Source: a virus. Taken from it: DNA of 64,000 nucleotides. Positions 39,616 to 58,300 of the stretch are shown in pieces. The translations under genes were made by a program, and so were the position numbers. Below the pieces are notes generated by a model that was not told where the DNA came from, did not search any database, and saw only the letters and a list, made by a program, of their open reading frames with translations. The stretch is taken from IMG/VR virus record IMGVR_UViG_3300042310_000541, positions 1 to 64,000 of that record. One strand, given 5' to 3'. Positions within the stretch are counted from its first letter, which is position 1, and every line of letters starts with the position of its first letter.

Positions 39616-42600
39616 ATGCCAGAAAACGAAAACGAATTTATATTTAGCAAAGATTTAAAGTTAAGCAAAACAGATCCAAATTTAAAAGTAACTCCATCTG
39701 GAACAAGCGGAGTTCTTAGTGGAGCTTTTGGAAATACAGATTTTGGAGAATCACAATTTGATTCACCAGATTTACCTGCATCAAGTATAATGAGCGGTGA
39801 ATACAAAGATATTAGAGGAGATATTCAATCAAAAACTGATAAATGGTTTAATGCTGTTCCAAGATTAATATCTAAAGTAGGAACTGAAGTTGCTAAAACT
39901 CCTGCATATCTTTATGCATTAGGAGAAGCTGTTGCTACAGATAAGTCATTAGCTGAGTCGTTAAATAATTCATGGTTAAATGCACTTCAAAATTTAGATG
40001 ATAAAACTAAAAAAGAATTTGCTATTTACAAACCTAAATCTGTTGTTGAAGGTAATTTATGGGATAACATTTCTTCTGCATCATTTTGGACAGATGAAGG
40101 AGTTGATGGTGTAGGATTTTTACTTGCTATGATGGCTCCGGCAGGAGCTTTAAGATTAGCAAATCTTTCAGGAAAAATGACTAAGTTTGGAATTGGTATA
40201 AATACTGCTAAGAATTTAGAGTTAGGAGCTGGAACATTATTAAATACAACATTAGAGTCAGCTGCTGAATCTAAAGGATTAGTTGATAAAATTAAACCAA
40301 TGCTTGATGAGCAATGGGCTGAAAAAGTAGCAAATGGAATGGATCCAGAATTAGCTGAGAAATTAAAAAATGAAATGCTTAATAAGGCAGGTTTTGATTC
40401 ATTTATGCAAAACATGATTCTTATTGCAGGCCCAAATTTCTTAATGAATAAAAAAATGTTAGGAAGATTTATTCCTGATAAAACTTCAATGAGTGCAATT
40501 GAAGATGCATCTGGTAAATTTATTGCACCTATTAAACTTACTAAAAAGCAAATTGCGGGTAATTATGGAAAAAGCTTATTAGAATCTTCTGTATCAGAAG
40601 GTTTAATTGAAGAAGGTGGTCAGTTTGCAATTGAGAATTACAATGAAAAAGTTGCATTAGGTTCAAATGATGTAAGTTTAATTAGTGAATATATTGATGG
40701 CTTGTCAACAACTGAAGGTCAAAAGTCAGTATTTCTTGGTGCTTTTTTAGGTTCAATGAGTGCTGTTGCAGGAGAATATGGCAAAGCAGCAAAAGACTTT
40801 AAAAAAAATACAAACTTATATTCAATGATGAAAAAAAATGAAGATGCTTATATATCTTCAATTAATGAGTTGTATGATGTAAATGAAAAAGGAGAGCCAC
40901 AGTTAAATCCTAAAAGAACTGCAGAGTATTTAGTTGCAATGCATAAAAACATGACTGATGCTGAACTAAAAGATGATTATGCAAGACTTGGCAATGAAGA
41001 AGGTTATGCATTTATAGCTAACAAAGACTTTACTAGATTTGCAGCAAGTTATTTAATGAATGGTGGTAATGTTGATGGATTAAACAAACATATAGATGAA
41101 CTGTCAGCTAAGTTATTAGAAAATGAAAAAAAATCAAATCCAGATAAAAATGACTTAGATGAAGTTAAATTTAAATCTGATTTAAAACAAAAAGCTAAAC
41201 AATTAGAAAAAGCTATTAAAAGTATTGACAGTTCAGTTAATGTAAAAGTTAAATCAGAAAACAAACCTTTGCTTGCTAAGTTTGCAAATGATTTATTTAA
41301 CACAGCTTTAAATGAAACGTCAAATCAAATGTTTATTAAAGATAGAATAAATGATTTAAATTTAAGACGTTTAGAATTAACCAATGCTTTGTCAGCTGAC
41401 ATTCCTCAAAATAAAATAGAGGCAGATAAAATAGAAAAACAAATAGAACTTTACAATAAAGATTTTGAAACATCTGTAAAAGATTATGAAAAATTGTTTG
41501 ACAAAAATGAACAAGAAATAGCTTTTGCCTGGTATGAAAAGCAAGATGTAAAAACTGATAAAGATATTGAAAAAACAAAAAAAAAAGTTAAAAAGAATGA
41601 TATAAAAAGCTTTGCTGAAAGAATAAGAAATGGCGAAGATGTGTATTCTGACGAAGATCAGGCATTTTTTAATGAAAACAGGAAGGAAATTGAAAAAGAA
41701 TTAAACTCAAATCCTGCAAACGAGGTTATTGAAACTCCATTCACAGAAGAAGATAATGAAGTTGATTTAGAAAATAAAAGAAGAAAGAATGCTGATGACC
41801 TAATGCATATAAGTAGCCTTAGAGAAAAAGCTAAAAAACAAAAAGAACTAGAAGAAACATTGAGCAATTCTACTGACTTAAATGGCTTGTCAGATAGAGC
41901 TCAAGTGAAGTACTCTGGAATGGAAGGAAGAATTTATAAGCATGAAAATGAAAACCTTTATATATTTGTAGATAACAAAACAGGTAAAGAATATGAAATT
42001 CCTCAAGATGAAGAATTTGGATATGATGGAAAATTGCATGATTATGGAATATTTGAACTAGGAAAAGAAAACTCAATATTTGACATTATTACGATTAATG
42101 ATAGCGGAAATTTTGTTATTAACAATAAAGAATATATAAATAACTATTCAAATCCATTAAACGCAATAAATAGAGATAAAAATGGCAATATTATATCAGT
42201 AACATTGTCTAATAAAAAAGGACAACCAAGAACTTTTAAAAAGTTTGCTGATGAAATGGCCTATGCAATATTATTACAAACCTATGATAAATTAGAAAAT
42301 GAAAGCAAAAGAACTAGAGAAGAAACTAAAAGAAAGCTTACAGAGCCAATTACAGAACAAGACAGTCAAAGAAAAGAACAAGATAATGACGGAAGCAATT
42401 CAGAAGAGTCTAGAAAAATAGAAGAAGCAATTGCAAAATTGCAACAAGGAATAGAAGAATCAAGAAATGAATTAAACAATACAGAAAAAGATAAAGAGCA
42501 AGCCGAGTTTTTTGAGTTTGCAATGCAGTCTGAAACATCTGAGGAGTTATTAGAATATGTTGAATTATTAAAAGGAAGCAAATACACTGATGCGTTAAAT

Positions 42601-45600
42601 GGTTTATATAAGCAGTTGGTAGAAAGCGAAAGAGAAAAAAAGAAAGAAAAATTAACTGAGCAAGATTTAATTTCTGAATTGTTTGGAAATCCAGAACAAG
42701 AGTATCCTGAGGATTTTGAAATTCCATCAGCTGATGAAGTTGATGATTCAGAACCTATTATAAATCAAGACAAAGGGAAAAAAGCTAAAACAGTAACTAA
42801 AACTAATCAAGGTTTTGATGGTATTATTTACAGAGACATCAACAAGGATGATCATTCTTTAATTGGAGAATCTCAGAATACTTATATATTAAGAAACTTT
42901 AGAACTAAAAATACTATTGAGATAGCTAAATCAGACTTATCTCAATTTGAAAGAATAAATAAAGTTCAAAACCAAAGAGTTTTTAGATGGATTAATAAAA
43001 ATGAAGTTAAAGGATACAGATTAAGAATTGTTACAAAAAATAACAACATTGATTTATACAGAGAGATACTTCAAGATAATCCAGATGCATTATTATACGA
43101 AACAAACAATCCTAATTATACAGGAATTTGGACTGTTATTACTAATGATAAAAATGAAATAGTAAGAGTTGATGGTAAACTATTAGCAATGACACTTGAA
43201 ACTGTTGATAGAGTTTTAAATGATGATTTAATTGTAGATAAGAAAAAAGGGACAGAAGATATAGCAGCAATTAGAGAAGCAGCTATTAATACTACAGATC
43301 CTAATGCTTATTTTGAAGTTAATAGCAAGTCTAATGGTATAGCTCAATTTGAAAATAAAGAAAATGGTAAAAGAGTTAGAAATTCTGTTATAGGAAGAAT
43401 AATAAATAAATTTTCTGATACATTTAAACTTACATTAGCAACTCAAAAAGGAACATATTTAAATGGAATACCTCTTGATTTAGGAAAGCTTTATATTGAA
43501 GATAAAGATGGTAGAGTATTAGATTTATTGCCAAGATTAATTAATGAATCAGAAATTAATTTGATTATAAATTTATTAGAACAAGAAATTACCGGCAATA
43601 AAGAAATTGATAAACCAATTGATGAAATAAAAAAGATTATTTCATTTAAGAAAACTGCAAATCCACAATATCAATTATACATTAGCAATGGAGAATTGTT
43701 TTTTGGAGAAGATTCACTTAATAAAAATAATTTTGAAGAGAAAATAGAAGATTTAATTAGCTTTTTAGAATCAAAAAGAGTTAATGCAAATAATTTATAC
43801 ATAAATAAAAATATACAAGTACCAACAACAAATGGTAAAGGAAAAACTATTAGCTATGCTGAGTATTTATTAGAAGGTGAAAATCCTATGTTTGGAACAG
43901 ACCTTAAAGATAAGTCAAATATTCAGTTTCTTAACCAATACTTAAGATATAATCCTACTATTAAATATGCAGAAGAAGTTGTTGAAGACAGTGATTTACC
44001 AACTGAAGATGATATAAACAGTGGTGTAATAATTGATTCATTAGGAGTAAGTGAAATTGACAATAAGAAAAATGAAATAGAATTAGTCGCTAGAGAAATA
44101 AATAGGCTTGTTGGATTAAGAAGTAATGATAAAGTAGTAAGACAAGCAATAATTGATTCTAATAATAAAAAAATAACATTAGAAGAACTAGATACTATAA
44201 CTAAAAATTGGAATAATGCAAATGGATTGACAAATGCTTTTGCTAAAATTACTAGATTAAGAAGAGAGTTAGATGTTTTAGAAGGCAAACCCATTGCAAC
44301 AACTCCTGTTTCTACAGATACTAAAGCTGATATAGAAAGAAGAAATACTTTTACAAGAGCTACTCAAATGAAAGTATTACCAAAAGGAACTCCTATTTTT
44401 GGTGGTAAAACAGCAGATGGCAAAACTGAATTTTTAGATGATAAATTACAATTTAATAATGGTGATAGAATTACTTTTTTTGCAGAAAAAGAAAGAACAG
44501 GTATTTATAAAGATGGGAAAATAGTAGAAACTGGTACAAATAATCCTTGGGGATTAGTTGGAATATTAATGGATGTTAAAGGATATATTAAAAACCAATC
44601 TAATATTAATACAGAACTAGCTGCTTTAGAAAATAAAGGTAATATTGCAATTGATTCATTATTAGTAGATGAACCAACAAATATTATTGCTCCTAAATTA
44701 ATGACTGTTCAGGTTGATTTATTATCATTAAGTATTGATGAATTAAAAAATGTAGCTACACAAATTAGACAGAAAGCTGTTGATGCTAGACAGGCAGAGA
44801 AAGAAGGAAAGACAATTATTGGTGGCTCTCAAGCAATTGAAAGTGATTATCAAGCAGTTAAAAAATATATTGCAGATTTAGTTTCTTTAAATAATACAGG
44901 TCAAGATGCAGAAATAGTTAATCAAGAAAAAAATACAACTCCGCCTAAAAAGAATAAACCAAGGAGAGATGAATTAAACAGATTAAGATCAAGAACTGCA
45001 GATACAACTTTAGTTGATAAAAAAGAAATTGAATGGTTTAAATATAATTTTCCAACAATTCCTATTGATAAAGTTATAGGTTTAATTGAGCAGAAATCAA
45101 TGGGTAGATTCTTATCTTCTGCAAGAGTATTATTGTCTGATCAAGCTGTAACTGGTACATTGTATCACGAAGCATTTCATGCTGTTACTCAGTTGTATTT
45201 AACCAAAGAAGAAGTAGATAGATTGTATAAGGAAGTTGCAGAAAGAACTGGAATTACTGATAGATTTGAAGCTGAAGAATTATTAGCTGAAGACTTTATT
45301 AACTATAAAAAAAATGGGGCAGTCCTAAAAGGAGCGCCACAAAGAAACACATTATTTAGAAAAATATTAAATGCAATTAAAGACTTCTTAGGATTAAAAG
45401 CATCTGATATTAATGAAGTTTACAGAAGACTTGACAGTGGTTATTACAGAAATAGCAAAGTTGTAGGACTAAAAGAATTTAGCAGTTTAAACAAAGATAG
45501 TGACAAAGAATTTGTTACTAAAGAAAAAGGTACAAAGTTTCTTATTGATACTTTAGACGGAATGGACTTAATGTTTTTTAATGCTACTCTTCATCCAGAC

Positions 45601-48600
45601 TCTGCTAATAAAAACATATCAAATATTATATATAATAAATTTTTAGATCTTTATGAAGCTGAAGAAAATCCTGAGTTAATTGATGCTTATGATTTTATTA
45701 CTGATAATTTTGAAAGAGTTAATTCATTATGGAAAGAAAGACTTTCATCTCTTGGCTTTAAATTTTCAGAAGATAGATTTGATTATACTGAAGATTCTGA
45801 AGAAAGAGGAACTGAAACTCTTGATGAAAAAGAAGAACAAGTAAAAGAAGATTTAAAAGGAACAAAAGATCAAAACTTTGTAAATCAAAAAGACTTACTT
45901 ACTTCAAGCTCAAAAATGTTAATCAAATCTTTAAAAAGATTAAATTACAAAAATGACTTAGGACTAGAAGTTCCATTAGATTTTGGACAAACTTATAATT
46001 ACTTAATAAAGAATATTGCTGGAACTGGCAATAACTATCTTGACATTATGGATAAGCTAAAAAGCTTAGTTAAAGATAAGCCAGAAATTCAACAATTAAT
46101 AGATATGCTTGGAGAAACTGGAGACAGTATATCTAACAAGCAATTTAACTTGCAAACTGCTTTTACTAAAGATTTTAATAAGACAAGAACTGATAGTTTA
46201 ATTACAGTTATTTCACCTAATGGAGCTATAAGAATTATAGATGCTACAAAGATGAATGATGCTGATATGGTTAAAGAGATCTGGAATAGTAATTTAGTAT
46301 CTCTTTTCCCTCAGAATGAAGCAGGAAATCAAGTTATACCTAATGTAAAAGAATTTATTAAAGTAAGAGATAATATTGAGTTCTTAGGTAAGATTGGCAT
46401 TCAATTTAATGAATATGCATTAGATTATTTAAATGAAAATCAAAGTGAGCTAACAGATTCTGTTACAGCTATAAAAAACTATTTAATTGCTCAAGACGGA
46501 AATGTAAATTCTTTATTTTCAAGTAAGTCTGATCTTTATAAAAGGATAGATAATTTAATAAATATAGAGGCTAAATATGCTCCTTATGTAAATGAGCTAA
46601 GCTTTATATCAACAGAAGGCAAGACAGTTTATTCTGTTGGTGAGAATAATGGATTATCAAGAACTATTAATGAAATTAATAAGTCAAAAAACTTGACTGA
46701 ATTAAGACAAAGACTTCCTCATCTTGATACTGTTACAGTTAGAAACAGTCAATACATTAAAAAACTATTTGATGAAAATGGTGTAAAAATACCAGGAGCT
46801 GAGGTTAAGTTATATTTGCAAGATGGTATTAAATCATCTTCAGATGCTGACAATCAAGTTAGGCAATCAACTAGAAAGTCTACTATTGGTGATTTAATGA
46901 CACAACAGTTTAACTCTTTGTTGCAAAAAGGAATATCTTCTTTTATTGTTTCAGCTGATAAATCATCTGAATTTGGAATTGGACTTTCTTTAAAAGAAGG
47001 AAATCTTGTTATACCAATTGATTTTGTTGAGAATAATTTTAATTCACCTAAAATAAAAGAAATATTTAGAGGCTATTTTGAAGATGAATTAAATAGAATT
47101 GCTTTATTTATTCTTGATGAAGTTGGTAATAATATTGATTACTACAGAAAAGAAGCTAAAAACTTTACTATATTTCAAGATATTATTCCATCTGACACAA
47201 GAAAGAGTATTATAAAGAAATTAGATGAACTTAAGAATGAAGGAAAGTCTTATAAAGACGCAAAAGCAAATATAGAAGAATTGCTTGACAATAATTTTGA
47301 AGCTGTTAATAAGAAAACAGTTGAATTCTTTGAAAATTATGAAAAAGAATTGACTAAAATGTCAAAAAAGTTTAAGTTAATAAATGGAGATAATTTTAGT
47401 GGAATAACAGATGATGTTAAAAGCAAGCATTCTAATGAAGCTTTAATAAGAGCAATTGCAATAAATAGTTATATTAACAATGTTGAACAAACAAAATTAT
47501 TTACCGGTGATTTAGCTTTTTATAAAGCAATATATAAAAGAAGTGCTGCATTTGCAGGTACTAAAGAAATACCAAGAGTTGACAGTGCTATTAATTCATA
47601 CTTAACTAAGAATTTTCCTAGAAAAGATGGTAAGGTTCAAGATGGTATGGAAAATGTCGTTGTATTTGAAAATGTTGAGACTCAAAAATTAGAGCTTGAT
47701 GAATACTTAGATGCTTATAAAAAGAAAGGAATTAGCAATGAAGCTGCTTTAAAAATACTTGGATTTACTAAAGCAGATATTGAAAAAATAAATAGAAAAG
47801 AATCTATAGAAAAGTCTAAGGGAAAAGCTTATGCTAAAATGGATGAAGGTGATGCTATGGGTTGGTGCACTATTGATTTTTACAGAGAGTTTATGAATAG
47901 ACTTTCTAATTGGTCAGATGCTCAAGAGTTTGCTTATCAAAAGATGCAAATGCAAAAGTTTGATGATGAAGGAAATTTGACAGAAGGAGAGTTATTGACT
48001 GGAAAAGAAATACAATTATTTCAACAATTAAAACTGCAGTATGCTGGTCCACAAGAAATGACAGGTTCATTATTTGCACCTGCTTATCATAAATTTACTG
48101 TACTTCCATTATTACCAGAGTTAGTTAAAGGTAAAAACATATCTAAGACACTTAAGAATATGACTGATAGTGCTGCTGGATATGGTTTATTTGGTTCAGG
48201 CTCTAAGGTTGGTACTGTTACAAATGCAAATGGTGAATTAACTCCATTTTATACAGGTAAAAACAATGGACAAATAAATTCTGAAGGATACAACATTCAA
48301 AGAGTTTATTATAATTTTTTAGGATTACAACAAAAACCATCTAAGCCACATGATACAGCTGTATTTTCTACTCAGTTTAGAAAAACACCTTGGATTGGAT
48401 CTTTTGAAAATGGCAAAGAGTTAATTGAAGGAGCAATGCAAAGATTTGAAGATTTTTCAAATCTTATTAATCAAAAAACTCAAGATGCAAAAGATGAATT
48501 GTTAATTGAATTAGGAATTAGACCTGGAGATACAACATACACTTCTACTAATGTTGAAAATTTAGTTAATTTATTACAAGATGAAGCTAGACAAAGAAAT

Positions 48601-51600
48601 CTTCCTGATAATTTAATTGAATCAATTGATTTTAGAATTGAAGAAGGCAAACAAATTCTTAAAACTAAATTTGATGCTGTTGTAAATAAAGACAAAATAA
48701 CTTCTATGTTAATGTCTTTAATAGATGCAAGAATCATCAGACAGCAATTTAATGGTGATGCATATGTATTATCATCAGTTGCAGGATTTGAGCCTATAGG
48801 TGAAAGATCTAAGGGCCCTAATGAAGCATTAAGAGGATATACAATAGATCCTGTTACAGGTAAAACACTTCCAGCTGAAGTAATGATACCAATGAGTAAA
48901 AATTATTATCCATTATTTAAAATGTTTGGTAATAATTTAGATAAGTTAAATGAAGCTATAAGAAATAAAGACCCAAAGATTGATCAAAGAGTTTTAGAGT
49001 TGATTGGATGTAGGATTCCAGGACAGGAACATAACTCTAATGAGTATTTAACTATTAAAGAATTTCTTCCTGAAGCCAGTGCAACTACAATGATTGCTCA
49101 TCCTGAGATTGTAGCTAAAGCAGGTAGTGACTTTGATAATGATAAATTATTTACATACAGAGCTAAAATAAATCCAGATGGATCTTATGACACTAAAAGT
49201 ATTGATAATGGCATTGTTAAAGTTTTAAAAGATCAAATATCTCATGAAAGTAATTTTACAAAACTTATAACTCCAAACTCCACTTCTATTGTAGATGAAT
49301 TTGTTGAACATTTGAAATATATAAATTATAAAAACAGGTTAACAATAAAGAATAGAACTGCAAAAGAACCTGCAAAAATAATGGATGAAGATAAGTATTT
49401 AGAAACACTAAATCAAGAAGGTGTTAAATACTCTGACTTATTAAAAATAACAAAACAAATTGAAGCCAGGTATAAACTATGGTTAGCTAAAGATGAAGTT
49501 GGGCCAGTAGCTATTGCTAATGCTTATGGGCCAATAGCTCAAGCTGGAAACTTAACTGCAAATCAATTCTTTTTTAGAGAAACTATTCAGAAAGGTGTAA
49601 AAATTACAGAAAGAGTTCCTGTTAATATAAGATTAAAGCATAATAAAACTGATGATGGTAAGATAAATCTTGCAGCTTATTTAGATGCAGAAAAAGTTAA
49701 CCCTATAACACAGGTTAATGGACAACAGATTAACATTGTTGTGGATGCTGCAAATGAAGTTGAACCTTCAGTAGCTTATTTAAATATGGTTATGGAAACA
49801 TTGCCTGTTTATTTATATTTGAATAGAGCCGGTGTTGAATTTCAAACTGTTGCATCTTTTATGACTCAAAATATAATGACAGAGTATTTAACCTTAAAAG
49901 GTATATCTAACTCTGCATTGTCAAAAGTACTTGGCCTTGATGCAGACTCAAATGCAATTACTCAAGCTAGAAAGAAATACGTTGATTATTTGCTTAATAA
50001 TATTGCAGAATTAAAAGGAAAAGAAGAAAATCTTCCTGCTTTTTTAGCTGAGCATCAAAAAGATGAATTAAGCAAAAGTGATTTAATGGATTATTTAGAA
50101 GTTGAAAATCAAGAAGGTATAGAGTATGCAATTACTCAACTTCAAGTTTTAGATGATTATACTGAATACAGAGAACATGCTAGAATGTTAAATGAAGCTG
50201 TAAGAACAACTAATCATGATTCAGCAGGTACTGGACAAAATCTAATATCAGTTGAAGAGAAAAAATTGCTTGAAATAAAAGTTGCTAAAGCTGGTTTTAT
50301 TAATGGACTTGAAAGAGTTAAAGATACATTTTTAGGTGCTTTTAATCAAGATGAATTAGCATTAAAAGCTTATAGTCCTTTCTTCTATACAAAGAGTGAT
50401 TCTGTTGTAAAAAATAACACAATTTATTTATTGCAAGAAGTAAAGAATAATAACTTTATTTTTAGCAAAGATGATTCAGTAAAGACAGGTAATTTAATAG
50501 AGAATGATTTTATTAATTTTATAGTTCAAAATTATGGCTATGAAAATCCTTCTCAAAGAATGGATGAATTGTTTAGAGGAGAAAATAGTATTGCTAAAAG
50601 AGTGTTAGAATTAAAGAACAGAGCAAAAAGTTTAAATAAACCTAAAGATGAATTAACCAGTAGAGAATTAGAAGAAAAAGAAATTGTTGATAATATTTTA
50701 ATATCTCAATTGTATCCTATGTTAAGGACTGAAAAGAAGTCTGTTGACAATATAAAACTTTTTAATAAAAAGATTGATACATACACAAGCAATCAATTGA
50801 CTGAAGCTTTTAGGCAATTAATGTCATTAGATCCGGAGTTAACAAAAGATATTATAGACTTAGGAATACTGCAATCAGGATTAAATAACAGTCCTATTAC
50901 ATTCTTAGGAATTATACCTAATTCTTATTATAGTGAAGTTGTCAATAAAGGATTTGACAAATTCTCTGAAATGAATAATAAAGATGAAATTATAAAGCAA
51001 TTTAATCAATTATTTTTAAGAAACAATGCTAAAGATAGATTTATAAGCAAAGTTGCTTATGTTAAAGGTTTAAATAAAGAAGAATTAGGAGATGGAATGT
51101 TTGGTAAGAATTTCTTAATGAAAAATTACATTCCTTCAATGAAAGACAATGTTGAAACTAATGTTGAATCTACTGAAAAATCTAATGTTCAAGATCCAAA
51201 AACACCAGAGTTTAATAAACTTCCAGGTAAATCACTAACACCTAGTATGACTTATGCTGGTATAGGATCTAGACAAACACCACAAGAAGCTCTTGATCTT
51301 ATGACTCAAATTGCTAAGTATCTTGATGATTTAGGTTATACATTAAGAAGTGGTGCAGCAGAAGGTGCAGACACAGCATTTGAAAATGGAGCAACAAAAA
51401 AGGAAATATTTAAAGGATTTGATAAAACAGGTCAAAGAGAAATAAATGTTGCTAATGAAATACATCCTGATCTTCAGGGTGCTATGAATGCATCTAAATC
51501 TAAAAAAATAAAATCAAGATTAGCTGAAGGTGCAACACAAGAAGAAGCTGAAAAATCAGGTGAAAAATCTGCATGGGCTGTTCAAAACTTAATGGCTAGA

Positions 51601-54600
51601 AATACTAATCAAGTATTTGGTGCTAATTTAGATACACCAGTAGATTTTGTATTATTCTGGGCACAAGAAATTCCTGGTTCAATTAGACCAAAAGGTGGTA
51701 CAGGACAAGCTGTAGAAATGGCAAGAAGAAAAGGTATTCCTACTATTAATATGGCAGATGCTAATTGGAAAGAACAATTAAAAGCAGCTATTGCTAATAA
51801 GTCTTCTGCTCAACCTGCCACTAGTGTTAAACCTACAATAGATACATCAAGAGAGTGGAAAAGTGATTTAGAGTCAAGACCAGTTTACACTTCAGAAGGA
51901 GTTAATACTATGAGAACAAGTGATGCTAATGCTTTTGAAAATTTTGGCAATCCTTTTAGTGAAGCTGGATATGGAGGAACTATAAAAGTTGATAGTGTTA
52001 AAGAAGCAGTTTTAGCATATAAAGAATGGCTGTTAGGTAATAATTATCAAGATGTTAAACCACAGCAAAGAGAATGGATACTTAATCAAATAAATTCAGG
52101 TAAACTTGATGGAGCTACATTATTGTATGCAGGAAAATTAGAAGCAAGAGGACAGGGTATGCATCCTATAGCATTAGCTGAAGTTGTTGAACAATTAAGA
52201 ACTACTCAACCATCTACTAGTGTTGACCAAGAATTTAAAAAAGGAGTAGAAATATCTTCTAATTCTAAAGGATTAGCTGCAGCTCTTACTAATCCAACAG
52301 AATTAGCTAAATCTAAAGGTAATCTTGCACAATCTTATCCTGTTCAATTAGATTTATTAATAGGAGTTAATAAAAAAGGAATCAATTCAAAAACAGGTGT
52401 TGCAGAAGACTCTGAAGCTGCTTATCAAGCATTAAAAGATACAGCTACTAAAGATGAAGGGCCTAATAGTACTTACAATCTTATGGTAGATATTATAAAA
52501 GCTAAACTTGAACAACATCCTAGACTTGCAAGTGAAATAAAGAAACTAGGTGGTTCTGATTGGATATTATCCTCTACACATCAGCCAACTTCTAAAAATA
52601 GTGTTTGGGAGACAGGAGGTAAAAATTGGTTTATTAAAGCTCTTAATGATGCTTATTTATTAACTGGAAATAATTTTAAAACTAAAATTGATCAATTTAA
52701 TTATACTTATAATCCAAATACAGGAGAAGTAATACACAACTCTAAAACTGGAGATAAAGTAGAAGATAATGAAACTCAAATAAACAAAGTGTTAGCTCAA
52801 TATGCTGTAGAAAGTGGATATGATATTAAAACATTTAACAATGCTGAATATGTAAAAATAAATGATAAAGTTTTAAATGCAAAAAGCGGAAATTTAGTTA
52901 CTCAAAAACAAATATTAGATTTATTTAATAACGCTGAAGCAGTTAAAAATATTGACAATAATACTCAAGAAGTATCAGTTGATAATACTTTTACATTTGC
53001 TGATGGTGTATCAATAAATACCGGCAATATAAAATTAAATGAACAGCAAAAGCAAGCATTGCAATTAGCTGTAAATGCAATAAATAATAAACAAACTAAA
53101 TTTGTACTTAAGGGATATGCAGGAACAGGAAAAAGTACAATTGCTAAATTTATACAATTTTACATAGAAAAAAAACATAGGGGAGCAAAGCAAATTGCAT
53201 ATGCAGCTCCTATGCACAAAGCTTCTATCAATTTATTGATTCAATTAATAAGAGGTGGAAATTTAAAATCATTACCAAATACTGTTGCTAAATTTTTAAA
53301 TAAAAGAAAAATTGATGGTAAATTTGTTCCAGGTCCAAAAAACTTAATGCCTATTAATGGAGTTGCAATTATAGATGAATCATCCATGATTGATAATATA
53401 GACTATAATGACATAGTAAAACTTGCTAAAGATAAGAATTCAACTGTTATATTTATGGGTGATCCAGCTCAGTTGCCACCTGTAGCAAGTAATACATTAA
53501 GCCCTGCTCTAACATATACTCAAGACAATGAAGGTGTAGAATTAACTGAAGTTATGAGACAAAAAGAAACTAATCCTGTTTTAAATCTAGTTACAGCTAT
53601 AAGAAGCAATCTTTTAAAAATAACAGAAAGTTTTTCTTTTGATTCAAATGTAAATGATAAAAAAGAAGGAAATGAATTTATTAAAGATAGAACGCAATTT
53701 ATGGATAAAATAAATGAATTATTTTCTTCAGATGAATATAAAAAAGATCCTACATATGCAAAAATAGTAACTTATTCTAATAATTCTGTTTATAATTACA
53801 ATCAAACAATTTTTGCAAAAATGAATATAGATGAGCCATATGGTGTTGGTTCTGTTCTTATGGGATATGAACAATCAACTCCTGAGCCAGTTGTTCATAA
53901 TGGCCAAGACTATGAAGTAGTAGAAAATAAATACAAAGATGAAGACAATTCATATCTTCTTTCAGCAAATATTAATGGTTCTACTTATGAAATTAAAGGT
54001 AAAATTTCAGGCTGGAATGTAAAAATTAAAAGAATCTTTAATGAAGAAGATACTGCATTAATTAAAAGTAGTGGTTCTACAGCTTCATTATTAGATTCTC
54101 AAGAAATATTTATAATTAATCCATATGATGACAGCAATATAGATATAATGATGCAATTTTTAAAATTCAAAGAAGTGATTTCAGATAATAGTATTCCTTG
54201 GAGAAGCAGAGCTGATGCTAGTGAAAGATTAGATAGATTGTTTAGCAAATATCAATTTCCTGAAGATTTGCTAATGTTTGAAGGAAAACCTACAACTTTA
54301 TCTATGCTTAAAAACAAAAGACCTGATTTGTTTAAACTTCAAGAAAATGGTAAAACAAAATTTGAAGAATTAAATATTAAAGCTTTTTATAATAAAAACA
54401 TAGATTATGGATATGCTGTAACATCACACAAAGCTCAAGGTTCTACATACAAAAATGTATTTGTTGATTATCAAAATATGGATAATCCATTCAACAACAG
54501 GGTGATTAGCTACAATGGAGATGCATATGGAAATGAAAGAAATATGTTAAAATATGTTGCATTAAGTAGAACATCTGGAATGAATTACATATACACCAGT

Positions 54601-54840
54601 AAAGCTACAAATAATATTTCCAAATCTAAAGAAAATAACGTACCTTTGACTTCTGAAGATGACATTATTTTAGATACATTAGGTGAAAGCACTTATGATT
54701 CATCATTAAGGAAGTTAAGAGATGCATTTTCAATGTACAATGGATTTTTTAATTCAAATGGAATAACAAACATAGATCAATTAAATAAATTGAGTGAAAG
54801 TAAATTAGATGAATTATTAGTTAAATATTGCAAAATATAA
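39616..54840 (+). CDS. Giant virion RNA polymerase polyprotein (5074 aa) with zincin, SLOG-like, DUF4326-like, NADAR-like and SF1B helicase modules
   Basis: RIPGQ...GSDFDNDKL catalytic loop (49129-49143); HEAFH (45166); YAGIGSR..SGAAEGAD..GGTGQAV; FGNPF; SEAAYQ..KAKLEQHP; GYAGTGKST, IIDESSM, GDPAQLPPV, TSHKAQGSTY, YVALSR. Confidence 0.88.
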   Translation: MPENENEFIFSKDLKLSKTDPNLKVTPSGTSGVLSGAFGNTDFGESQFDSPDLPASSIMSGEYKDIRGDIQSKTDKWFNAVPRLISKVGTEVAKTPAYLYALGEAVATDKSLAESLNNSWLNALQNLDDKTKKEFAIYKPKSVVEGNLWDNISSASFWTDEGVDGVGFLLAMMAPAGALRLANLSGKMTKFGIGINTAKNLELGAGTLLNTTLESAAESKGLVDKIKPMLDEQWAEKVANGMDPELAEKLKNEMLNKAGFDSFMQNMILIAGPNFLMNKKMLGRFIPDKTSMSAIEDASGKFIAPIKLTKKQIAGNYGKSLLESSVSEGLIEEGGQFAIENYNEKVALGSNDVSLISEYIDGLSTTEGQKSVFLGAFLGSMSAVAGEYGKAAKDFKKNTNLYSMMKKNEDAYISSINELYDVNEKGEPQLNPKRTAEYLVAMHKNMTDAELKDDYARLGNEEGYAFIANKDFTRFAASYLMNGGNVDGLNKHIDELSAKLLENEKKSNPDKNDLDEVKFKSDLKQKAKQLEKAIKSIDSSVNVKVKSENKPLLAKFANDLFNTALNETSNQMFIKDRINDLNLRRLELTNALSADIPQNKIEADKIEKQIELYNKDFETSVKDYEKLFDKNEQEIAFAWYEKQDVKTDKDIEKTKKKVKKNDIKSFAERIRNGEDVYSDEDQAFFNENRKEIEKELNSNPANEVIETPFTEEDNEVDLENKRRKNADDLMHISSLREKAKKQKELEETLSNSTDLNGLSDRAQVKYSGMEGRIYKHENENLYIFVDNKTGKEYEIPQDEEFGYDGKLHDYGIFELGKENSIFDIITINDSGNFVINNKEYINNYSNPLNAINRDKNGNIISVTLSNKKGQPRTFKKFADEMAYAILLQTYDKLENESKRTREETKRKLTEPITEQDSQRKEQDNDGSNSEESRKIEEAIAKLQQGIEESRNELNNTEKDKEQAEFFEFAMQSETSEELLEYVELLKGSKYTDALNGLYKQLVESEREKKKEKLTEQDLISELFGNPEQEYPEDFEIPSADEVDDSEPIINQDKGKKAKTVTKTNQGFDGIIYRDINKDDHSLIGESQNTYILRNFRTKNTIEIAKSDLSQFERINKVQNQRVFRWINKNEVKGYRLRIVTKNNNIDLYREILQDNPDALLYETNNPNYTGIWTVITNDKNEIVRVDGKLLAMTLETVDRVLNDDLIVDKKKGTEDIAAIREAAINTTDPNAYFEVNSKSNGIAQFENKENGKRVRNSVIGRIINKFSDTFKLTLATQKGTYLNGIPLDLGKLYIEDKDGRVLDLLPRLINESEINLIINLLEQEITGNKEIDKPIDEIKKIISFKKTANPQYQLYISNGELFFGEDSLNKNNFEEKIEDLISFLESKRVNANNLYINKNIQVPTTNGKGKTISYAEYLLEGENPMFGTDLKDKSNIQFLNQYLRYNPTIKYAEEVVEDSDLPTEDDINSGVIIDSLGVSEIDNKKNEIELVAREINRLVGLRSNDKVVRQAIIDSNNKKITLEELDTITKNWNNANGLTNAFAKITRLRRELDVLEGKPIATTPVSTDTKADIERRNTFTRATQMKVLPKGTPIFGGKTADGKTEFLDDKLQFNNGDRITFFAEKERTGIYKDGKIVETGTNNPWGLVGILMDVKGYIKNQSNINTELAALENKGNIAIDSLLVDEPTNIIAPKLMTVQVDLLSLSIDELKNVATQIRQKAVDARQAEKEGKTIIGGSQAIESDYQAVKKYIADLVSLNNTGQDAEIVNQEKNTTPPKKNKPRRDELNRLRSRTADTTLVDKKEIEWFKYNFPTIPIDKVIGLIEQKSMGRFLSSARVLLSDQAVTGTLYHEAFHAVTQLYLTKEEVDRLYKEVAERTGITDRFEAEELLAEDFINYKKNGAVLKGAPQRNTLFRKILNAIKDFLGLKASDINEVYRRLDSGYYRNSKVVGLKEFSSLNKDSDKEFVTKEKGTKFLIDTLDGMDLMFFNATLHPDSANKNISNIIYNKFLDLYEAEENPELIDAYDFITDNFERVNSLWKERLSSLGFKFSEDRFDYTEDSEERGTETLDEKEEQVKEDLKGTKDQNFVNQKDLLTSSSKMLIKSLKRLNYKNDLGLEVPLDFGQTYNYLIKNIAGTGNNYLDIMDKLKSLVKDKPEIQQLIDMLGETGDSISNKQFNLQTAFTKDFNKTRTDSLITVISPNGAIRIIDATKMNDADMVKEIWNSNLVSLFPQNEAGNQVIPNVKEFIKVRDNIEFLGKIGIQFNEYALDYLNENQSELTDSVTAIKNYLIAQDGNVNSLFSSKSDLYKRIDNLINIEAKYAPYVNELSFISTEGKTVYSVGENNGLSRTINEINKSKNLTELRQRLPHLDTVTVRNSQYIKKLFDENGVKIPGAEVKLYLQDGIKSSSDADNQVRQSTRKSTIGDLMTQQFNSLLQKGISSFIVSADKSSEFGIGLSLKEGNLVIPIDFVENNFNSPKIKEIFRGYFEDELNRIALFILDEVGNNIDYYRKEAKNFTIFQDIIPSDTRKSIIKKLDELKNEGKSYKDAKANIEELLDNNFEAVNKKTVEFFENYEKELTKMSKKFKLINGDNFSGITDDVKSKHSNEALIRAIAINSYINNVEQTKLFTGDLAFYKAIYKRSAAFAGTKEIPRVDSAINSYLTKNFPRKDGKVQDGMENVVVFENVETQKLELDEYLDAYKKKGISNEAALKILGFTKADIEKINRKESIEKSKGKAYAKMDEGDAMGWCTIDFYREFMNRLSNWSDAQEFAYQKMQMQKFDDEGNLTEGELLTGKEIQLFQQLKLQYAGPQEMTGSLFAPAYHKFTVLPLLPELVKGKNISKTLKNMTDSAAGYGLFGSGSKVGTVTNANGELTPFYTGKNNGQINSEGYNIQRVYYNFLGLQQKPSKPHDTAVFSTQFRKTPWIGSFENGKELIEGAMQRFEDFSNLINQKTQDAKDELLIELGIRPGDTTYTSTNVENLVNLLQDEARQRNLPDNLIESIDFRIEEGKQILKTKFDAVVNKDKITSMLMSLIDARIIRQQFNGDAYVLSSVAGFEPIGERSKGPNEALRGYTIDPVTGKTLPAEVMIPMSKNYYPLFKMFGNNLDKLNEAIRNKDPKIDQRVLELIGCRIPGQEHNSNEYLTIKEFLPEASATTMIAHPEIVAKAGSDFDNDKLFTYRAKINPDGSYDTKSIDNGIVKVLKDQISHESNFTKLITPNSTSIVDEFVEHLKYINYKNRLTIKNRTAKEPAKIMDEDKYLETLNQEGVKYSDLLKITKQIEARYKLWLAKDEVGPVAIANAYGPIAQAGNLTANQFFFRETIQKGVKITERVPVNIRLKHNKTDDGKINLAAYLDAEKVNPITQVNGQQINIVVDAANEVEPSVAYLNMVMETLPVYLYLNRAGVEFQTVASFMTQNIMTEYLTLKGISNSALSKVLGLDADSNAITQARKKYVDYLLNNIAELKGKEENLPAFLAEHQKDELSKSDLMDYLEVENQEGIEYAITQLQVLDDYTEYREHARMLNEAVRTTNHDSAGTGQNLISVEEKKLLEIKVAKAGFINGLERVKDTFLGAFNQDELALKAYSPFFYTKSDSVVKNNTIYLLQEVKNNNFIFSKDDSVKTGNLIENDFINFIVQNYGYENPSQRMDELFRGENSIAKRVLELKNRAKSLNKPKDELTSRELEEKEIVDNILISQLYPMLRTEKKSVDNIKLFNKKIDTYTSNQLTEAFRQLMSLDPELTKDIIDLGILQSGLNNSPITFLGIIPNSYYSEVVNKGFDKFSEMNNKDEIIKQFNQLFLRNNAKDRFISKVAYVKGLNKEELGDGMFGKNFLMKNYIPSMKDNVETNVESTEKSNVQDPKTPEFNKLPGKSLTPSMTYAGIGSRQTPQEALDLMTQIAKYLDDLGYTLRSGAAEGADTAFENGATKKEIFKGFDKTGQREINVANEIHPDLQGAMNASKSKKIKSRLAEGATQEEAEKSGEKSAWAVQNLMARNTNQVFGANLDTPVDFVLFWAQEIPGSIRPKGGTGQAVEMARRKGIPTINMADANWKEQLKAAIANKSSAQPATSVKPTIDTSREWKSDLESRPVYTSEGVNTMRTSDANAFENFGNPFSEAGYGGTIKVDSVKEAVLAYKEWLLGNNYQDVKPQQREWILNQINSGKLDGATLLYAGKLEARGQGMHPIALAEVVEQLRTTQPSTSVDQEFKKGVEISSNSKGLAAALTNPTELAKSKGNLAQSYPVQLDLLIGVNKKGINSKTGVAEDSEAAYQALKDTATKDEGPNSTYNLMVDIIKAKLEQHPRLASEIKKLGGSDWILSSTHQPTSKNSVWETGGKNWFIKALNDAYLLTGNNFKTKIDQFNYTYNPNTGEVIHNSKTGDKVEDNETQINKVLAQYAVESGYDIKTFNNAEYVKINDKVLNAKSGNLVTQKQILDLFNNAEAVKNIDNNTQEVSVDNTFTFADGVSINTGNIKLNEQQKQALQLAVNAINNKQTKFVLKGYAGTGKSTIAKFIQFYIEKKHRGAKQIAYAAPMHKASINLLIQLIRGGNLKSLPNTVAKFLNKRKIDGKFVPGPKNLMPINGVAIIDESSMIDNIDYNDIVKLAKDKNSTVIFMGDPAQLPPVASNTLSPALTYTQDNEGVELTEVMRQKETNPVLNLVTAIRSNLLKITESFSFDSNVNDKKEGNEFIKDRTQFMDKINELFSSDEYKKDPTYAKIVTYSNNSVYNYNQTIFAKMNIDEPYGVGSVLMGYEQSTPEPVVHNGQDYEVVENKYKDEDNSYLLSANINGSTYEIKGKISGWNVKIKRIFNEEDTALIKSSGSTASLLDSQEIFIINPYDDSNIDIMMQFLKFKEVISDNSIPWRSRADASERLDRLFSKYQFPEDLLMFEGKPTTLSMLKNKRPDLFKLQENGKTKFEELNIKAFYNKNIDYGYAVTSHKAQGSTYKNVFVDYQNMDNPFNNRVISYNGDAYGNERNMLKYVALSRTSGMNYIYTSKATNNISKSKENNVPLTSEDDIILDTLGESTYDSSLRKLRDAFSMYNGFFNSNGITNIDQLNKLSESKLDELLVKYCKI

Positions 54841-54848
54841 TAATCAAA

Positions 54849-55346
54849 ATGGACAAAAAAAAATTATTAAATGACAAAGTTGTAAAAGCTTTAAATTATA
54901 GAATACAACAAGAAGAGCAATCTTCAAGAATTTATGAACAAATGTCTTTATGGCTTAACAATAAAGGTATTTTAAATTGTTCAGAATTATATAAAAGGTA
55001 TGCTGATGAAGAATTAAAGCATTCTCAAATTGCTAAAAACTATTTATTAGATTATGGATATACTCCAGTTTTAGCTGCATTGCAATCTCCTGCAATGGAT
55101 TTAAAAACTTTAACTGATGTATTTGAAACAACTTTAGAGCATGAATTATTGATAACTAAACAATGTGAAGAATTAGCATCTGAAGCATTGAAAGAAAGTA
55201 ATCATGTTCTTTATAGTTTAGCATTAAAATACTGCTCAGAACAACAAGAAGAAATAGGCAAGGCTATTACATTAATTGATATTAACAAACTAAGCAATGA
55301 TGTACTTGTTGTAGATCATTACATTGGTGATAAACTATTAGGATAA
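54849..55346 (+). CDS. Ferritin (non-heme, FtnA-like)
   Basis: ALNYRIQQE..SS..Y, EELKH, LEHE..IT, SEQQEE ferroxidase pattern; ATG at 54849 preferred. Confidence 0.8.
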   Translation: MDKKKLLNDKVVKALNYRIQQEEQSSRIYEQMSLWLNNKGILNCSELYKRYADEELKHSQIAKNYLLDYGYTPVLAALQSPAMDLKTLTDVFETTLEHELLITKQCEELASEALKESNHVLYSLALKYCSEQQEEIGKAITLIDINKLSNDVLVVDHYIGDKLLG

Positions 55347-55347
55347 T

Positions 55348-58300
55348 ATGATTAGCTGTCCTTTAAAATCATTGCAGCAGTGGAAAGATCTTGTTAATAT
55401 TTATGGAGAAAATAAAGCTACAGGATTGTGGGTTAAATATGAAGGTTATCCTCCTGATTATCTTTATTCTCCAAAGCAAATTGAACCTATTCCTTTAAAT
55501 GAAGAGTCTGAAGCTATATATAAACAATACAATCTTATAAACAAAAATGGAGGAATAAAGAACTTTTTGTCAATGAAAACTGCTAATAAATTTGCAGCTT
55601 CATTAAATCAAAGTCCTAATTATTCTTTTTATGTAAGAAATACTCCCGGTGGAATAAAGATATTATTGTATCCTAAAAAAGTTGTTGAAGAAAAAAAAGT
55701 TGAGGAGCCTATTAATAGAAATGGAATTCAAGGTACTTTATTTAGTAAGTCAAATGTTGAAAAATCAAATTCTGCTGTATCTCAAATTTTAAATAGATTA
55801 AAAAAAGAACTTCCTATTGAAATAGCAAATGCTGTTACAGTATTAAGAAACGTACCAAAAAGTATATTAGGTAAAAATAATTTATTTTTATCTATAAAGA
55901 ATTTTTTAGAAGACAATGGAATAAAAGATGAAATATTAATCAATTGGGTAGGTGTAAACAAAGATTCATTAGGACATCCTAAAAATTTAAAATCAGAACA
56001 GCAAATATTAGATATAATTCAAGAAAGATTAACTAAAAAGCAAAAAGAATCTAATTACAATGAATTTAAAACAAATCCATTAGCTTTGGAGAGTTTTAAA
56101 AATTGGAATAAAGCTTTGGAAAAATATCCATTACCATTTCAAGAAGCAATGCTAACGCATGCATTAAAATGGCTAAATAATCCAGTTAGAAGATCTAAAT
56201 ATGTATTGCAATTAAGCGATGTAGCCTTGCAACAAACCTATGGAATATTAGCAAATAAGCCACATGAGTTAAACAGAATAGGTAAATTATATGACCAAGA
56301 AGTATTAAAAACTGTTTCTGATGCAGTAGGACATGAGCCTTCAGCAAGTGGTAAAGGGTATTGGGTACATATTCCAAGAACTGAGTTAAACACTGTAAGT
56401 CAAGACATTGAGAATGCAAAAAAAGAAATTCAAAAATTAGAGTCTACAACAGCCTTAGATAAATTTAAAAAACGATATACTGATAAAAAAGAAAGCATAG
56501 CTAATACTAAGCATAATATTGAAAAATGGAGTAAACAAGAGGATGCTAAAGATGATGTAATAGCTTCGCAACAAAGATTAAAAATATTAGAAAGTGAATT
56601 AGAAGATATTCTTTTTAACAAGGAAAGTATTGAAAAAAACTATCAAAAAGAATTAGATGATGTTTTATTGTTAAGAAAAAAAGAATTAAAAGAATTAGAG
56701 AGTTTAAAAGATAATGATAATAGTTCTCAATTCAAAGCAAATGTAGAACTACTTAGAAAACTATCTCCTTCTACTTGGTGCACAGCATCAGGTATGGCTT
56801 CTCATTATGTAGAAAATTATGACAATTATTTATTAATTGTTGATGGAGTTACAGTTGCAGGTATTGAAGCTACTAATCAAACTACTTCAGAATATGAAAC
56901 ATTTGACAGGTTTGAATTAAATGGAAATAATTATACAAAAATAGATACATATAGAAAAAATGGTGAAAAAATAACTAAAGAAGACTATAATTTAGCAATA
57001 GAAACAAAGAAAAAAGAAGGTAAAATACAAGTAAAAGAAGTAACCTCAAGAGGTAATAATGGAATAGCATCTATTGACCATTATGATGATATATTAGCTT
57101 TCTTTGAAAAACATAATTTAGATACTAATAATGAGTCTTTAAATAGGGCTAAAAAAGCTAAAGAGAAAGGTAAGGAAGATAAAGACATCTACGAACAGGA
57201 ACCAGAAGATCAGATGTATTACCCTGCATGGGACGAGGGAGATGATAGAGATGATCCAGGTTTAGAATACAGAAGAGAAAGAGAAGAATGGGACAGGGAG
57301 ATGCAAGAAGATTTAAACTGGAGAAATTCAGAAGTTGAAAAATTAAATACTGTAGAAGAAGTTTTACAAAATCCTGATTATTTAGAATTTTTTGAAAATT
57401 TAAAATATGAATTAAAAAATAACGAAGAAATTGCAAGAGAAGGAATAAAATATAACAGTTATTATATAACTTATTTAGATTCAAATTTACCATTTTATAA
57501 TGAGCTTGTTAAAATAGCTCTAGAAGACAATCCAGATGTTTTTCAGTATTTACCACAAGAAGTAAAAGAATTGCCAGATTTAAGAGAAATTTATAATGAA
57601 TATCTTTTAGATAAACATGATGATTTAAATGATCCTTTAGATGACGGTTTGCCTTTTTCAAAAACTGAAAATTCTATACAAGGTTATTATGATCCAAAAA
57701 CAGATAAAGTTGTAATTATAGCTGAAAATACTCCTTTAGAAGAAGCATCTAAAGTTGCAATACATGAAGTAGCTCATAGAGGTATGCTTAGAATGGCTAA
57801 AGAATTAGGTGGAGAAAAAGAATTATTTAATGCTTTAAAATCTGCTGAAAAACAATTAATGGAAAAACTACCTGAGCTTTTAAAAAGAACAGGGCATACT
57901 TCATTAGATAATTTAATGCTTGATTATGGCTTTGACAAAAACTCAGAAGAAGGAAAGTTTAAATTATTGCAAGAACTTGCTGCAAGATGGGCTGAAACAT
58001 TAATAGATAAACCTAAGCCTAGTTGGTGGAAAGATTTATTGCAAAAAATAGGTGATTGGATAAAACAATTTACCGGTAAAGTATTAACAGAAAAAGAAGT
58101 AGATGAATTAATTGGTGGATTTGTTAAATATGGCACTCAAAATTTAAATGACAAAAATTTAAAAAGCAATGCAGAAGCTCAATATAGTAAAAAAAATGAA
58201 GAGCAGGATCCTGTTAAGAAAAAAGAACCTGCTAAAAAAATAGGTAAAATTGAGCAATATTTTCAAACAAGAATTGCTAAGCTTACTAAAGATTACTCAT

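Follow-up and report, generated by a model that had tools for sequence, protein, structure and literature searches.

A virion RNA polymerase gene of a crAss-like phage with Cys-free SLOG-, DUF4326- and NADAR-like modules and a Dda/RecD-type helicase in its C-terminal region

The giant gene and its polymerase core

The stretch of DNA analysed here, called the window hereafter, comprises 64 kb of the 75.5-kb linear IMG/VR virus record IMGVR_UViG_3300042310_000541, whose estimated completeness is 79%. The source virus is a lake crAss-like phage. On the + strand, a virion block contains terminase, portal, major capsid and tail genes, followed by several very large open reading frames (ORFs). The largest ORF of the window belongs to this block: positions 39616..54840, ~29% G+C, form a single uninterrupted frame of 5,074 codons, the product of which we called P0001. 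Its central part resembles a virion RNA polymerase (RNAP), and its C-terminal region carries a string of enzyme-like modules that a reading of the sequence alone had proposed to be a counter-defence payload injected with the genome. The features of P0001 are the following.

39616..54840, +, giant ORF P0001, fused virion polyprotein: N-terminal region, zincin-like region, RNAP core and C-terminal module string
45163..45186, +, YHEAFHAV, an HExxH motif (aa 1851), in the region of aa ~1781-1960
47824..49155, +, RNAP core stretch, homolog of phi14:2 g066 (tblastn E 1e-16, 24.6% identity), ending at DFDND (49129-49143)
51244..51801, +, Module S (aa 3877-4062), SLOG-superfamily DprA-like domain; phrog_768 E 4e-46; YAGIGSR, SGAAEGAD and GGTGQAVE
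51802..52230, +, Module A (aa 4063-4205), DUF4326-fold domain, Cys-free variant; HFGNPF-type motif and AYKEWL, conserved core 51841-52200
51811..51828, +, QPATSV linker at the S/A junction
52207..52224, +, QPSTSV linker at the A/B junction
52231..52671, +, Module B (aa 4206-4352), remote NADAR-fold domain, Cys-free variant; conserved core 52252-52656
52672..53028, +, Module C (core aa 4353-4445, 52672-52950), a conserved unit of ~95 aa, and linker to the helicase
53029..54606, +, SF1B helicase of the Dda/RecD type (aa 4472-4997); AAA_30, phrog_325, RecD2, T4 Dda
54607..54837, +, C-terminal tail of 77 aa, common to some related giants (P0070, P0153), with no meaningful Pfam or NCBIfam match

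All the motifs quoted in the sequence-only reading are present in P0001 where that reading had placed them, and independent evidence agrees with its module borders to within a few codons. Thus, the motifs start at nt 49129 (DFDND, aa 3172), 51253 (YAGIGSR), 51349 (SGAAEGAD), 51598 (RNTNQV), 51694 (GGTGQAV), 51943 (FGNPF), 52015 (AYKEWL), 52411 (SEAAYQ), 52483 (MVDIIKAKLEQHP) and 53113 (Walker A, GYAGTGKS). Judging from the E-values of 5e-25 to 1e-63 of the helicase and SLOG modules against family models and from the strong conservation of the A and B motifs, the module resemblances are beyond chance.

The assignment of the core to the gp66-type virion RNAPs is backed by the DFDND motif and by homology (tblastn) between aa 2737-3180 of P0001 and g066 of Cellulophaga phage phi14:2, the experimentally characterised catalytic crAss-like virion RNAP (10.1101/2020.03.07.982082). 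The core also matches RNAP genes from crass-like phages of Bacteroides and Flavobacterium. A phmmer search of PDB sequences with the RNAP gave no match, consistent with the known divergence of gp66-type enzymes. Upstream of the core, the HExxH region (aa ~1781-1960) is kept in 34 of 61 related giant proteins and is a candidate zincin-like protease like that described for gp65 orthologs, although it matched no Pfam or peptidase family model. Some crAss-like phages encode gp65 (zincin-like), gp66 (RNAP) and gp67 as a single fusion, a polyprotein for which cleavage is probable (10.1101/2020.03.07.982082), and the position of the HExxH region of P0001 before its RNAP core fits this published fusion. 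In joining several disparate domains, P0001 also resembles polyvalent proteins.

Outside the + strand block, a gene at 62295-63098 on the minus strand codes for a protein of 267 aa that matches phrog_37590 and the MazG-like dATP/dGTP pyrophosphohydrolase family. It stands at the beginning of a minus-strand replication and nucleotide module (ligase, ribonucleotide reductase, exonuclease, primase).

Modules of the C-terminal region

Module S matches phrog_768 ('DprA-like DNA recombination-mediator protein') with an E-value of 4e-46 over 180 of the 191 profile positions, which bears out its description as a SLOG/DprA-like module. Its sole Pfam hit is DNA_processg_A (DprA; E 1e-4, 22 bits, under the cut-off of 29.6), and in PADLOC it matched the DprA-like antitoxins PsyrA (5.5e-7) and ShosA (2e-4). 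It contains three Gly-rich motifs, YAGIGSR, SGAAEGAD and GGTGQAVE, which we take to be those typical of SLOG nucleotide binding after strands 1, 2 and 4. Free-standing homologs of Module S were found in 1,397 GenBank phage records, with a coverage of at least 80% in 1,323 of them. Both the Pfam hit and these phage homologs, which are annotated as DprA-like and often lie beside an RNA ligase, would suit a C-terminal region that merely handles DNA. In that case, the DprA-like module would bind single-stranded DNA (ssDNA) and the helicase would unwind DNA, jump-starting transcription, replication or recombination, with modules A and B as non-catalytic binding or scaffold domains whose ancestral chemistry has been lost.

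The prediction of a complete SF1B helicase was confirmed by family models above cut-off and by intact motifs I (53113), Ia, II (53368), III (53458), V (54421) and VI (54553). It matches AAA_30 (E 5e-25, 88.8 bits, cut-off 27), AAA_19 and PIF1, as well as phrog_325 (Dda-like, 1e-63), RecD2 (1e-23) and T4 Dda (3upu, 1.7e-8). Its closest relatives are the replication-module SF1 helicases of gut crassviruses, and it is the only AAA_30/SF1 helicase seen in the 75.5-kb record; both points also speak for a role limited to DNA handling. The preceding Module C has the consensus F.TK.DQF.YT.N..T.EVIHN.K.GDK.E.NETQINKV and is found in at least 14 other proteins, including the giants P0145 and P0153, where it is also located upstream of a helicase. 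It had no family hit in Pfam, NCBIfam or PADLOC.

As a single sequence, Module A of the window had no hit in Pfam or NCBIfam and did not reach the DUF4326 gathering score. However, a profile of 23 Module A homologs (A1) retrieved P0181 and P0182 among 5.8 billion sequences, at E 4e-5 and 6e-5, and these are bona fide PF14216 proteins (Pfam DUF4326 E 5e-22 and 3.5e-18). The alignment of A1 with P0181 by hhalign covers 58 columns (probability 98.7%, E 4e-16), and the intermediates P0171, P0172, P0176 and P0180 have sub-threshold Pfam DUF4326 hits (E 0.017-0.11). The AlphaFold2 (AF2) model of Module A has a predicted local distance difference test score (pLDDT) of 88. In a Foldseek search of BFVD, its first-ranking match comes from a Pseudomonas phage and is a DUF4326 protein (template modelling (TM) scores 0.50/0.51 over 135 columns, E 2.8e-4); roughly one in two of the 50 leading matches bears the name DUF4326. 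Nothing significant was found by Foldseek in the PDB, where no solved structure matched, and neither A1 nor A2, the alignment of Module B from giants, matched PDB sequences in phmmer/hmmsearch.

Canonical DUF4326 proteins have a C-x-C-x(3-4)-C-H motif near the C-terminus, reading LGCWCAPLACHG, LVCFCHPKECHG or LGCWCAPKECHG. In contrast, Module A reads LLYAGKLEARGQGMHP at this place, with only the His kept. In every A1 row, the motif is replaced by the loop Y-x-G-K-x3-R-G-x-G-x-H (52120-52167), in an alignment that is collinear to the end. The 23 rows contain no Cys at all, and K, R, G, G and H of Module A are invariant. Thus, as judged from the profiles and the model, Module A has the DUF4326 fold and represents a separate subfamily devoid of Cys. 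The DUF4326-like call made from the sequence holds at the levels of profile and fold, for a variant that lacks CxC..CH and is missed by Pfam. The Lys/Arg/Gly loop looks like a phosphate-binding site.

In Module B, residues D4265, E4267, K4274, H4322 and W4331-E4332 are invariant. Across 27 giants and 50 free-standing proteins, D, E, H and W-E do not vary, and the Lys is invariant in A2 and nearly so in A3, the profile of the 50 free-standing homologs. The latter belong to a large family of ~130-aa proteins from bacteria and metagenomes (364 hits). P0207, P0223, P0254, P0241 and others of this family are unannotated and come from cyanobacteria (Microcoleus, Microcystaceae), Agitococcus, Deinococcota and metagenomes. 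A scan of bacterial genome contigs with a Module B profile yielded patterns only and no confirmed relative.

The AF2 model of Module B (pLDDT 83, predicted TM score 0.79) was aligned to 48,161 PDB representatives, and the top three ranks are occupied by precisely the three structures of NADAR proteins. The YbiA fold, i.e. core helices flanked by small beta elements, is present in the model; by Foldseek, its PDB matches were not significant. Sub-threshold Pfam NADAR hits were obtained for four of the 50 free-standing homologs (best E 0.021). Module B had no NCBIfam hit and, in the PADLOC scan, no DarG-type hit. A search of PDB sequences with A3 ranked YbiA (E 0.012) and 8bau (0.29) first, and the alignment puts E4267 and K4274 on E43 and K50 of NADAR, with the same seven-residue spacing. 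In the numbering of P. nicotianae NADAR, these residues belong to the ADP-ribose site, and their importance was shown by mutagenesis (PMC11543638). The third catalytic position of NADARs is Glu, Asp or His depending on the subfamily (PMC11125620). The NADAR-like call therefore stands for the fold and for the retained Glu and Lys; the module falls outside the Pfam family, and its third catalytic position differs between alignments. Natural fusions that exchange partners, P0271 with a canonical DUF4326 and a B-type domain and P0173 with an A-type domain and a Pfam-positive NADAR, support both a functional pairing of the two modules and the equivalence of B to NADAR.

The S-A-B set might also be packaged and yet act on small molecules, destroying or sequestering NAD-derived signals or toxins (cyclic ADP-ribose isomers, ADPr-1''P) at time zero. 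SLOG would either bind them or break their adenine N-glycosidic bond, while the other ribosyl bond and a terminal phosphate would be attacked by the NADAR-like and the DUF4326-like module, respectively. This is the published prediction for SLOG, DUF4326 and NADAR/Macro combinations in DNA viruses, including virion-gene versions (PMC9503650), and the conserved Lys/Arg/Gly-rich loop of Module A would suit phosphate binding. Nevertheless, every NADAR assayed to date acts on ADP-ribosyl-guanine in DNA (PMC11125620), and the modules of P0001 are tethered to DNA-tracking enzymes.

Module distribution and cysteine depletion

We searched a 50%-clustered library of 1.84 billion representatives with aa 4063-4471 (E<=1e-3) and obtained 651 proteins, many of them 3,000-5,600 aa long. 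Modules A and B have dozens to hundreds of homologs each, with strongly conserved motifs. Among 61 giants, the DFDxD motif is present in 51, B in 38, A in 24 and S in one, and the order and position of the modules vary. At the IMG/VR loci, B is inside a giant ORF in 32 of 33 cases, usually with DFDxD, and a helicase follows it in six; B lies before the RNAP core in some giants and after it in others. When A and B were compared with 50,697 GenBank phages by tblastn, no match was obtained.

Proteins with an identity of just ~23% in the RNAP core reach 50-80% in the modules, which indicates cassette exchange or a much stronger constraint on the modules. Such identity is not expected of the DNA-handling scheme in which A and B have lost their chemistry, nor is the very strong conservation of polar residues in both modules, a pattern typical of active sites. 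Although the loss of CxC..CH in A and the lack of an acidic residue at the E125-aligned position of B would fit that scheme, we consider it improbable.

Additional fusions show, at the sequence level, further cassette types in this protein class. The fragments P0021 and P0023 combine a B-type module with a circularly permuted YpsA SLOG (cpYpsA, PF12694), which represents a different SLOG clade, and the fragment P0045 combines an A-type module with AlkB (PF13532), a nucleic-acid lesion-repair domain. The recruitment of another SLOG clade next to B favours an action on small molecules, whereas AlkB beside an A-type module, and the fact that A, B and S mostly occur singly in the related RNAP giants, do not. 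On balance, we regard the small-molecule target as the strongest of the alternatives, possible but rather unlikely.

A helicase at the C-terminal end of a crass RNAP is also found in a gut crassvirus, as QOR58058.1 of cr50_1 has an RNAP core and a C-terminal SF1 helicase in one coding sequence of 4,774 aa. This protein (MT774375.1, uncultured phage cr50_1, 1-10626) is annotated just as 'DNA helicase', and comparable labels ('exonuclease V' / 'DNA helicase') lie over the RNAP match in cr118_1.

P0001 contains three Cys in 5,074 aa, and the part from Module S through the helicase has none in 1,121 residues. We extended this count to the cargo block, defined as the five large + strand ORFs at 31781-35461, 35468-37471, 37504-39609, 39616-54840 and 55348-60720. 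The block (31781-60720) has seven Cys in 9,458 residues (0.07%), compared with 153 in 13,296 (1.15%) for the other 38 ORFs (Fisher p 2e-27). Taken by itself, the part from Module S through the helicase is depleted relative to the remaining proteome with a p-value of 6e-6. Similarly, Cys is below 0.15% in 62 of 62 related giants, and the A1 and A2 alignments are Cys-free. In contrast, Cys makes up 2.0% of the residues in free-standing B homologs, where a nearly invariant one adjoins the invariant His, and canonical DUF4326 proteins keep three conserved Cys. Since the C-terminal modules are Cys-free while free-standing relatives of A and B keep conserved Cys residues, the modules have been remodelled to the constraint that acts on the adjacent cargo genes.

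The RNAP-associated proteins of PhiCrAss001 are carried in the capsid as cargo and must partly unfold to traverse the tail (PMC10172136). It is plausible that the Cys purge is an adaptation to such an ejection, and the depletion common to the C-terminal region and the cargo genes strengthens the view that they are ejected together. Cys depletion is possibly a sequence signature of ejected proteins. Between P0001 and the next cargo gene, a 172-aa ORF (54828-55346; phrog_16594, a family label without function) overlaps the P0001 stop. It has three Cys (1.7%) and is probably not cargo, because it is not Cys-depleted.

The C-terminal third might instead not be delivered, being cleaved off by the zincin-like protease at assembly or made late for replication or repair in the producing cell. 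Cleavage is expected for fused gp65-66-67 proteins (10.1101/2020.03.07.982082), QP[AS]TSV linkers flank Module A, and the helicase resembles replication helicases. The cargo-type Cys purge of this region (0/1,121; p 6e-6), which its free-standing relatives do not share, argues against this scenario. So does the placement of B, which differs between giants in being before or after the RNAP core. In addition, no Bacteroidota-type promoter motif was found on the + strand from 43735 to 55566, so that separate expression of the C-terminal region is not indicated. We thus hold the lack of delivery to be highly improbable.

The QPATSV and QPSTSV linkers may be cleavage sites or recombination junctions. 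In several homologs, TQPSTSV-like stretches are found before an A or B module. Because the strict pattern [ST][QE]P[ST]T[ST][VI] occurs in just four of 62 giants, we do not propose it as a cleavage site of general use.

Possible function and known systems

These analyses led us to a model that we favour with about even confidence, in which the C-terminal region of P0001 is a cis-acting unit for template preparation and adduct removal, delivered with the genome. P0001 would be a polyvalent virion cargo, consisting of a gp65-gp66-type fusion (zincin-like region and two-barrel RNAP) extended by exchangeable Cys-free enzyme cassettes. Either intact or as cleavage products, it would be packaged and then ejected, before the DNA or together with it. 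The Dda-type helicase, moving 5'-3' on ssDNA, would then open the incoming duplex and provide the single-stranded template required by gp66-type RNAPs, perhaps assisted by the DprA-like module as an ssDNA or nucleotide binder. The NADAR-like module would act as an ADP-ribose N-glycohydrolase on the exposed ssDNA or on soluble products, reversing DarT1-type guanine ADP-ribosylation, and the DUF4326-like and SLOG modules would bind or trim the freed ADP-ribose or nucleotide species.

The model draws on the position in the virion block, the g066 homology, the Dda match, the Cys signature and the literature on NADAR and DarT1. Whereas ssDNA and denatured DNA are good templates for gp66, native double-stranded DNA is hardly transcribed (10.1101/2020.03.07.982082). 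The supply of an ssDNA template is in our view a better-grounded role for the helicase than the help with genome entry suggested from the sequence, as 'transcription-driven genome entry' appears to be an idea taken from N4 that has no direct support in crass-like phages. DarT toxins modify ssDNA, and ADP-ribose on ssDNA guanine is removed by every NADAR assayed, phage AdfN among them (PMC11125620, PMC11825919); AdfN defeats DarTG1 (PMC11825919). The proposal of an injected counter-defence payload is an inference that agrees with predictions in the literature (PMC9503650, PMC5512222) and with the experimental results for other NADARs of phages (PMC11825919).

Several observations weigh against this model. 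The one motif that is strongly conserved in DUF4326 is absent from Module A, which may have a different chemistry or none. The Pfam NADAR model (PF08719) does not detect Module B, with no hit at E<=10 for the module of the window, and alignments of its profile with single NADARs by hhalign are not significant (probability 2% for T4 gp30.3 and 1.5% for P0173). In one weak alignment, the position corresponding to the catalytic E125/D171 is a Leu, with the invariant H4322 four residues later. A and B are mostly single in the related giants (both in five of 61, S in one), so that the three modules need not work together. Phage SLOG/DUF4326/NADAR sets have been argued to target soluble ADP-ribose derivatives rather than DNA adducts (Iyer et al., PMC9503650). 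Finally, the carriage of DarT-type systems by the host, the presence of aa 3877-5074 in the virion and the activity of this region are assumptions of the model.

The other weak alignment disagrees with the first at the third catalytic position and places H4322 on the His of P0173, a Pfam NADAR of the His type ('LTH'). This nearby invariant residue is the only one that could substitute there. In view of the hhalign results, we do not assign Module B to the gp30.3/AdfN clade.

We tentatively propose a broader scheme, which we consider possible although doubtful as a whole. Environmental crass-like phages would keep a pool of exchangeable, Cys-free and ejectable cassettes (NADAR-like, DUF4326-like, SLOG, AlkB-like and SF1B) on their virion RNAPs. 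In P0001, these would form a cis template-preparation and lesion-reversal unit, whose helicase would produce ssDNA for the RNAP and whose antitoxin-like modules (NADAR resembling DarG1, and DprA-like resembling ShosA/PsyrA) would neutralise toxin-antitoxin defences that attack exposed ssDNA before phage gene expression.

Should the C-terminal region be delivered and active, the particles of these abundant phages would already contain their counter-defence, physically linked to the enzyme that transcribes first, a logic different from that of early-gene anti-defence proteins such as AdfN. The model also offers a mechanistic answer to how an ssDNA-preferring gp66-type RNAP obtains its template. 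Our analyses define two large families invisible to Pfam, a Cys-less DUF4326 family and a NADAR-fold family that gains clear mutational targets (E4267, K4274 and H4322). The Cys purge is a simple signature that could predict ejected phage proteins.

Known systems share parts of this architecture. Like phi14:2 gp66 and the gp65-gp66-gp67 fusions known from crAss-like phages (Drobysheva et al. 2021; Yutin et al. 2018), P0001 has a homologous DFDxD core, a location in the virion block, an upstream HExxH fusion and a giant size. However, phi14:2 gp66 (~2,180 aa) is devoid of SLOG, DUF4326, NADAR and helicase modules, which in P0001 are borne by ~1,200 extra C-terminal residues. The RNAP of cr50_1 (QOR58058.1; Crassvirales, Cohcovirus, 4,774 aa) shares with P0001 the combination of an RNAP core and a C-terminal SF1 helicase in one ORF, but it has no S, A or B modules, and only its helicase part matches the C-terminal region of P0001. 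Polyvalent proteins (Iyer et al. 2017, PMC5512222) similarly join many unrelated enzymatic domains in one virion-associated chain, and they are predicted to be processed by proteases and co-delivered with DNA to counter defence and to jump-start transcription and replication. The survey that described them does not mention NADAR, SLOG, crass-type RNAPs or crass phages, and its helicases are mainly of the SNF2/SF2 type fused to methylases, in contrast with the SF1B helicase fused to an RNAP in P0001.

The same three superfamilies as in P0001 are found in one polypeptide in the SLOG-DUF4326-NADAR/Macro architectures, which are predicted to be used early against NAD/ADP-ribose immunity (Iyer et al. 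2022, PMC9503650). These sets are typically free-standing, whereas that of P0001 is part of a virion RNAP, and its DUF4326 and NADAR versions represent Cys-free subfamilies that escape Pfam and have no match in GenBank phages. A phage-borne NADAR-superfamily domain is also present in AdfN (T4 gp30.3, the Bas32/Bas60 NADARs; orphan DarG1-like anti-DarTG1 factors, PMC11825919), and by analogy it is plausible that Module B is a DNA ADP-ribosylglycohydrolase for counter-defence. In contrast to Module B, AdfN proteins are small, free-standing and expressed after infection, and Module B has no detectable sequence affinity to T4 gp30.3. None of the papers searched links Crassvirales RNAPs with NADAR. 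Crass virion RNAP polyproteins, polyvalent proteins, the SLOG-DUF4326-NADAR association and counter-defence by phage NADARs are thus already known; the placement of the modules on a virion RNAP, the two Cys-free subfamilies and the cargo-wide Cys purge appear to be described here for the first time.

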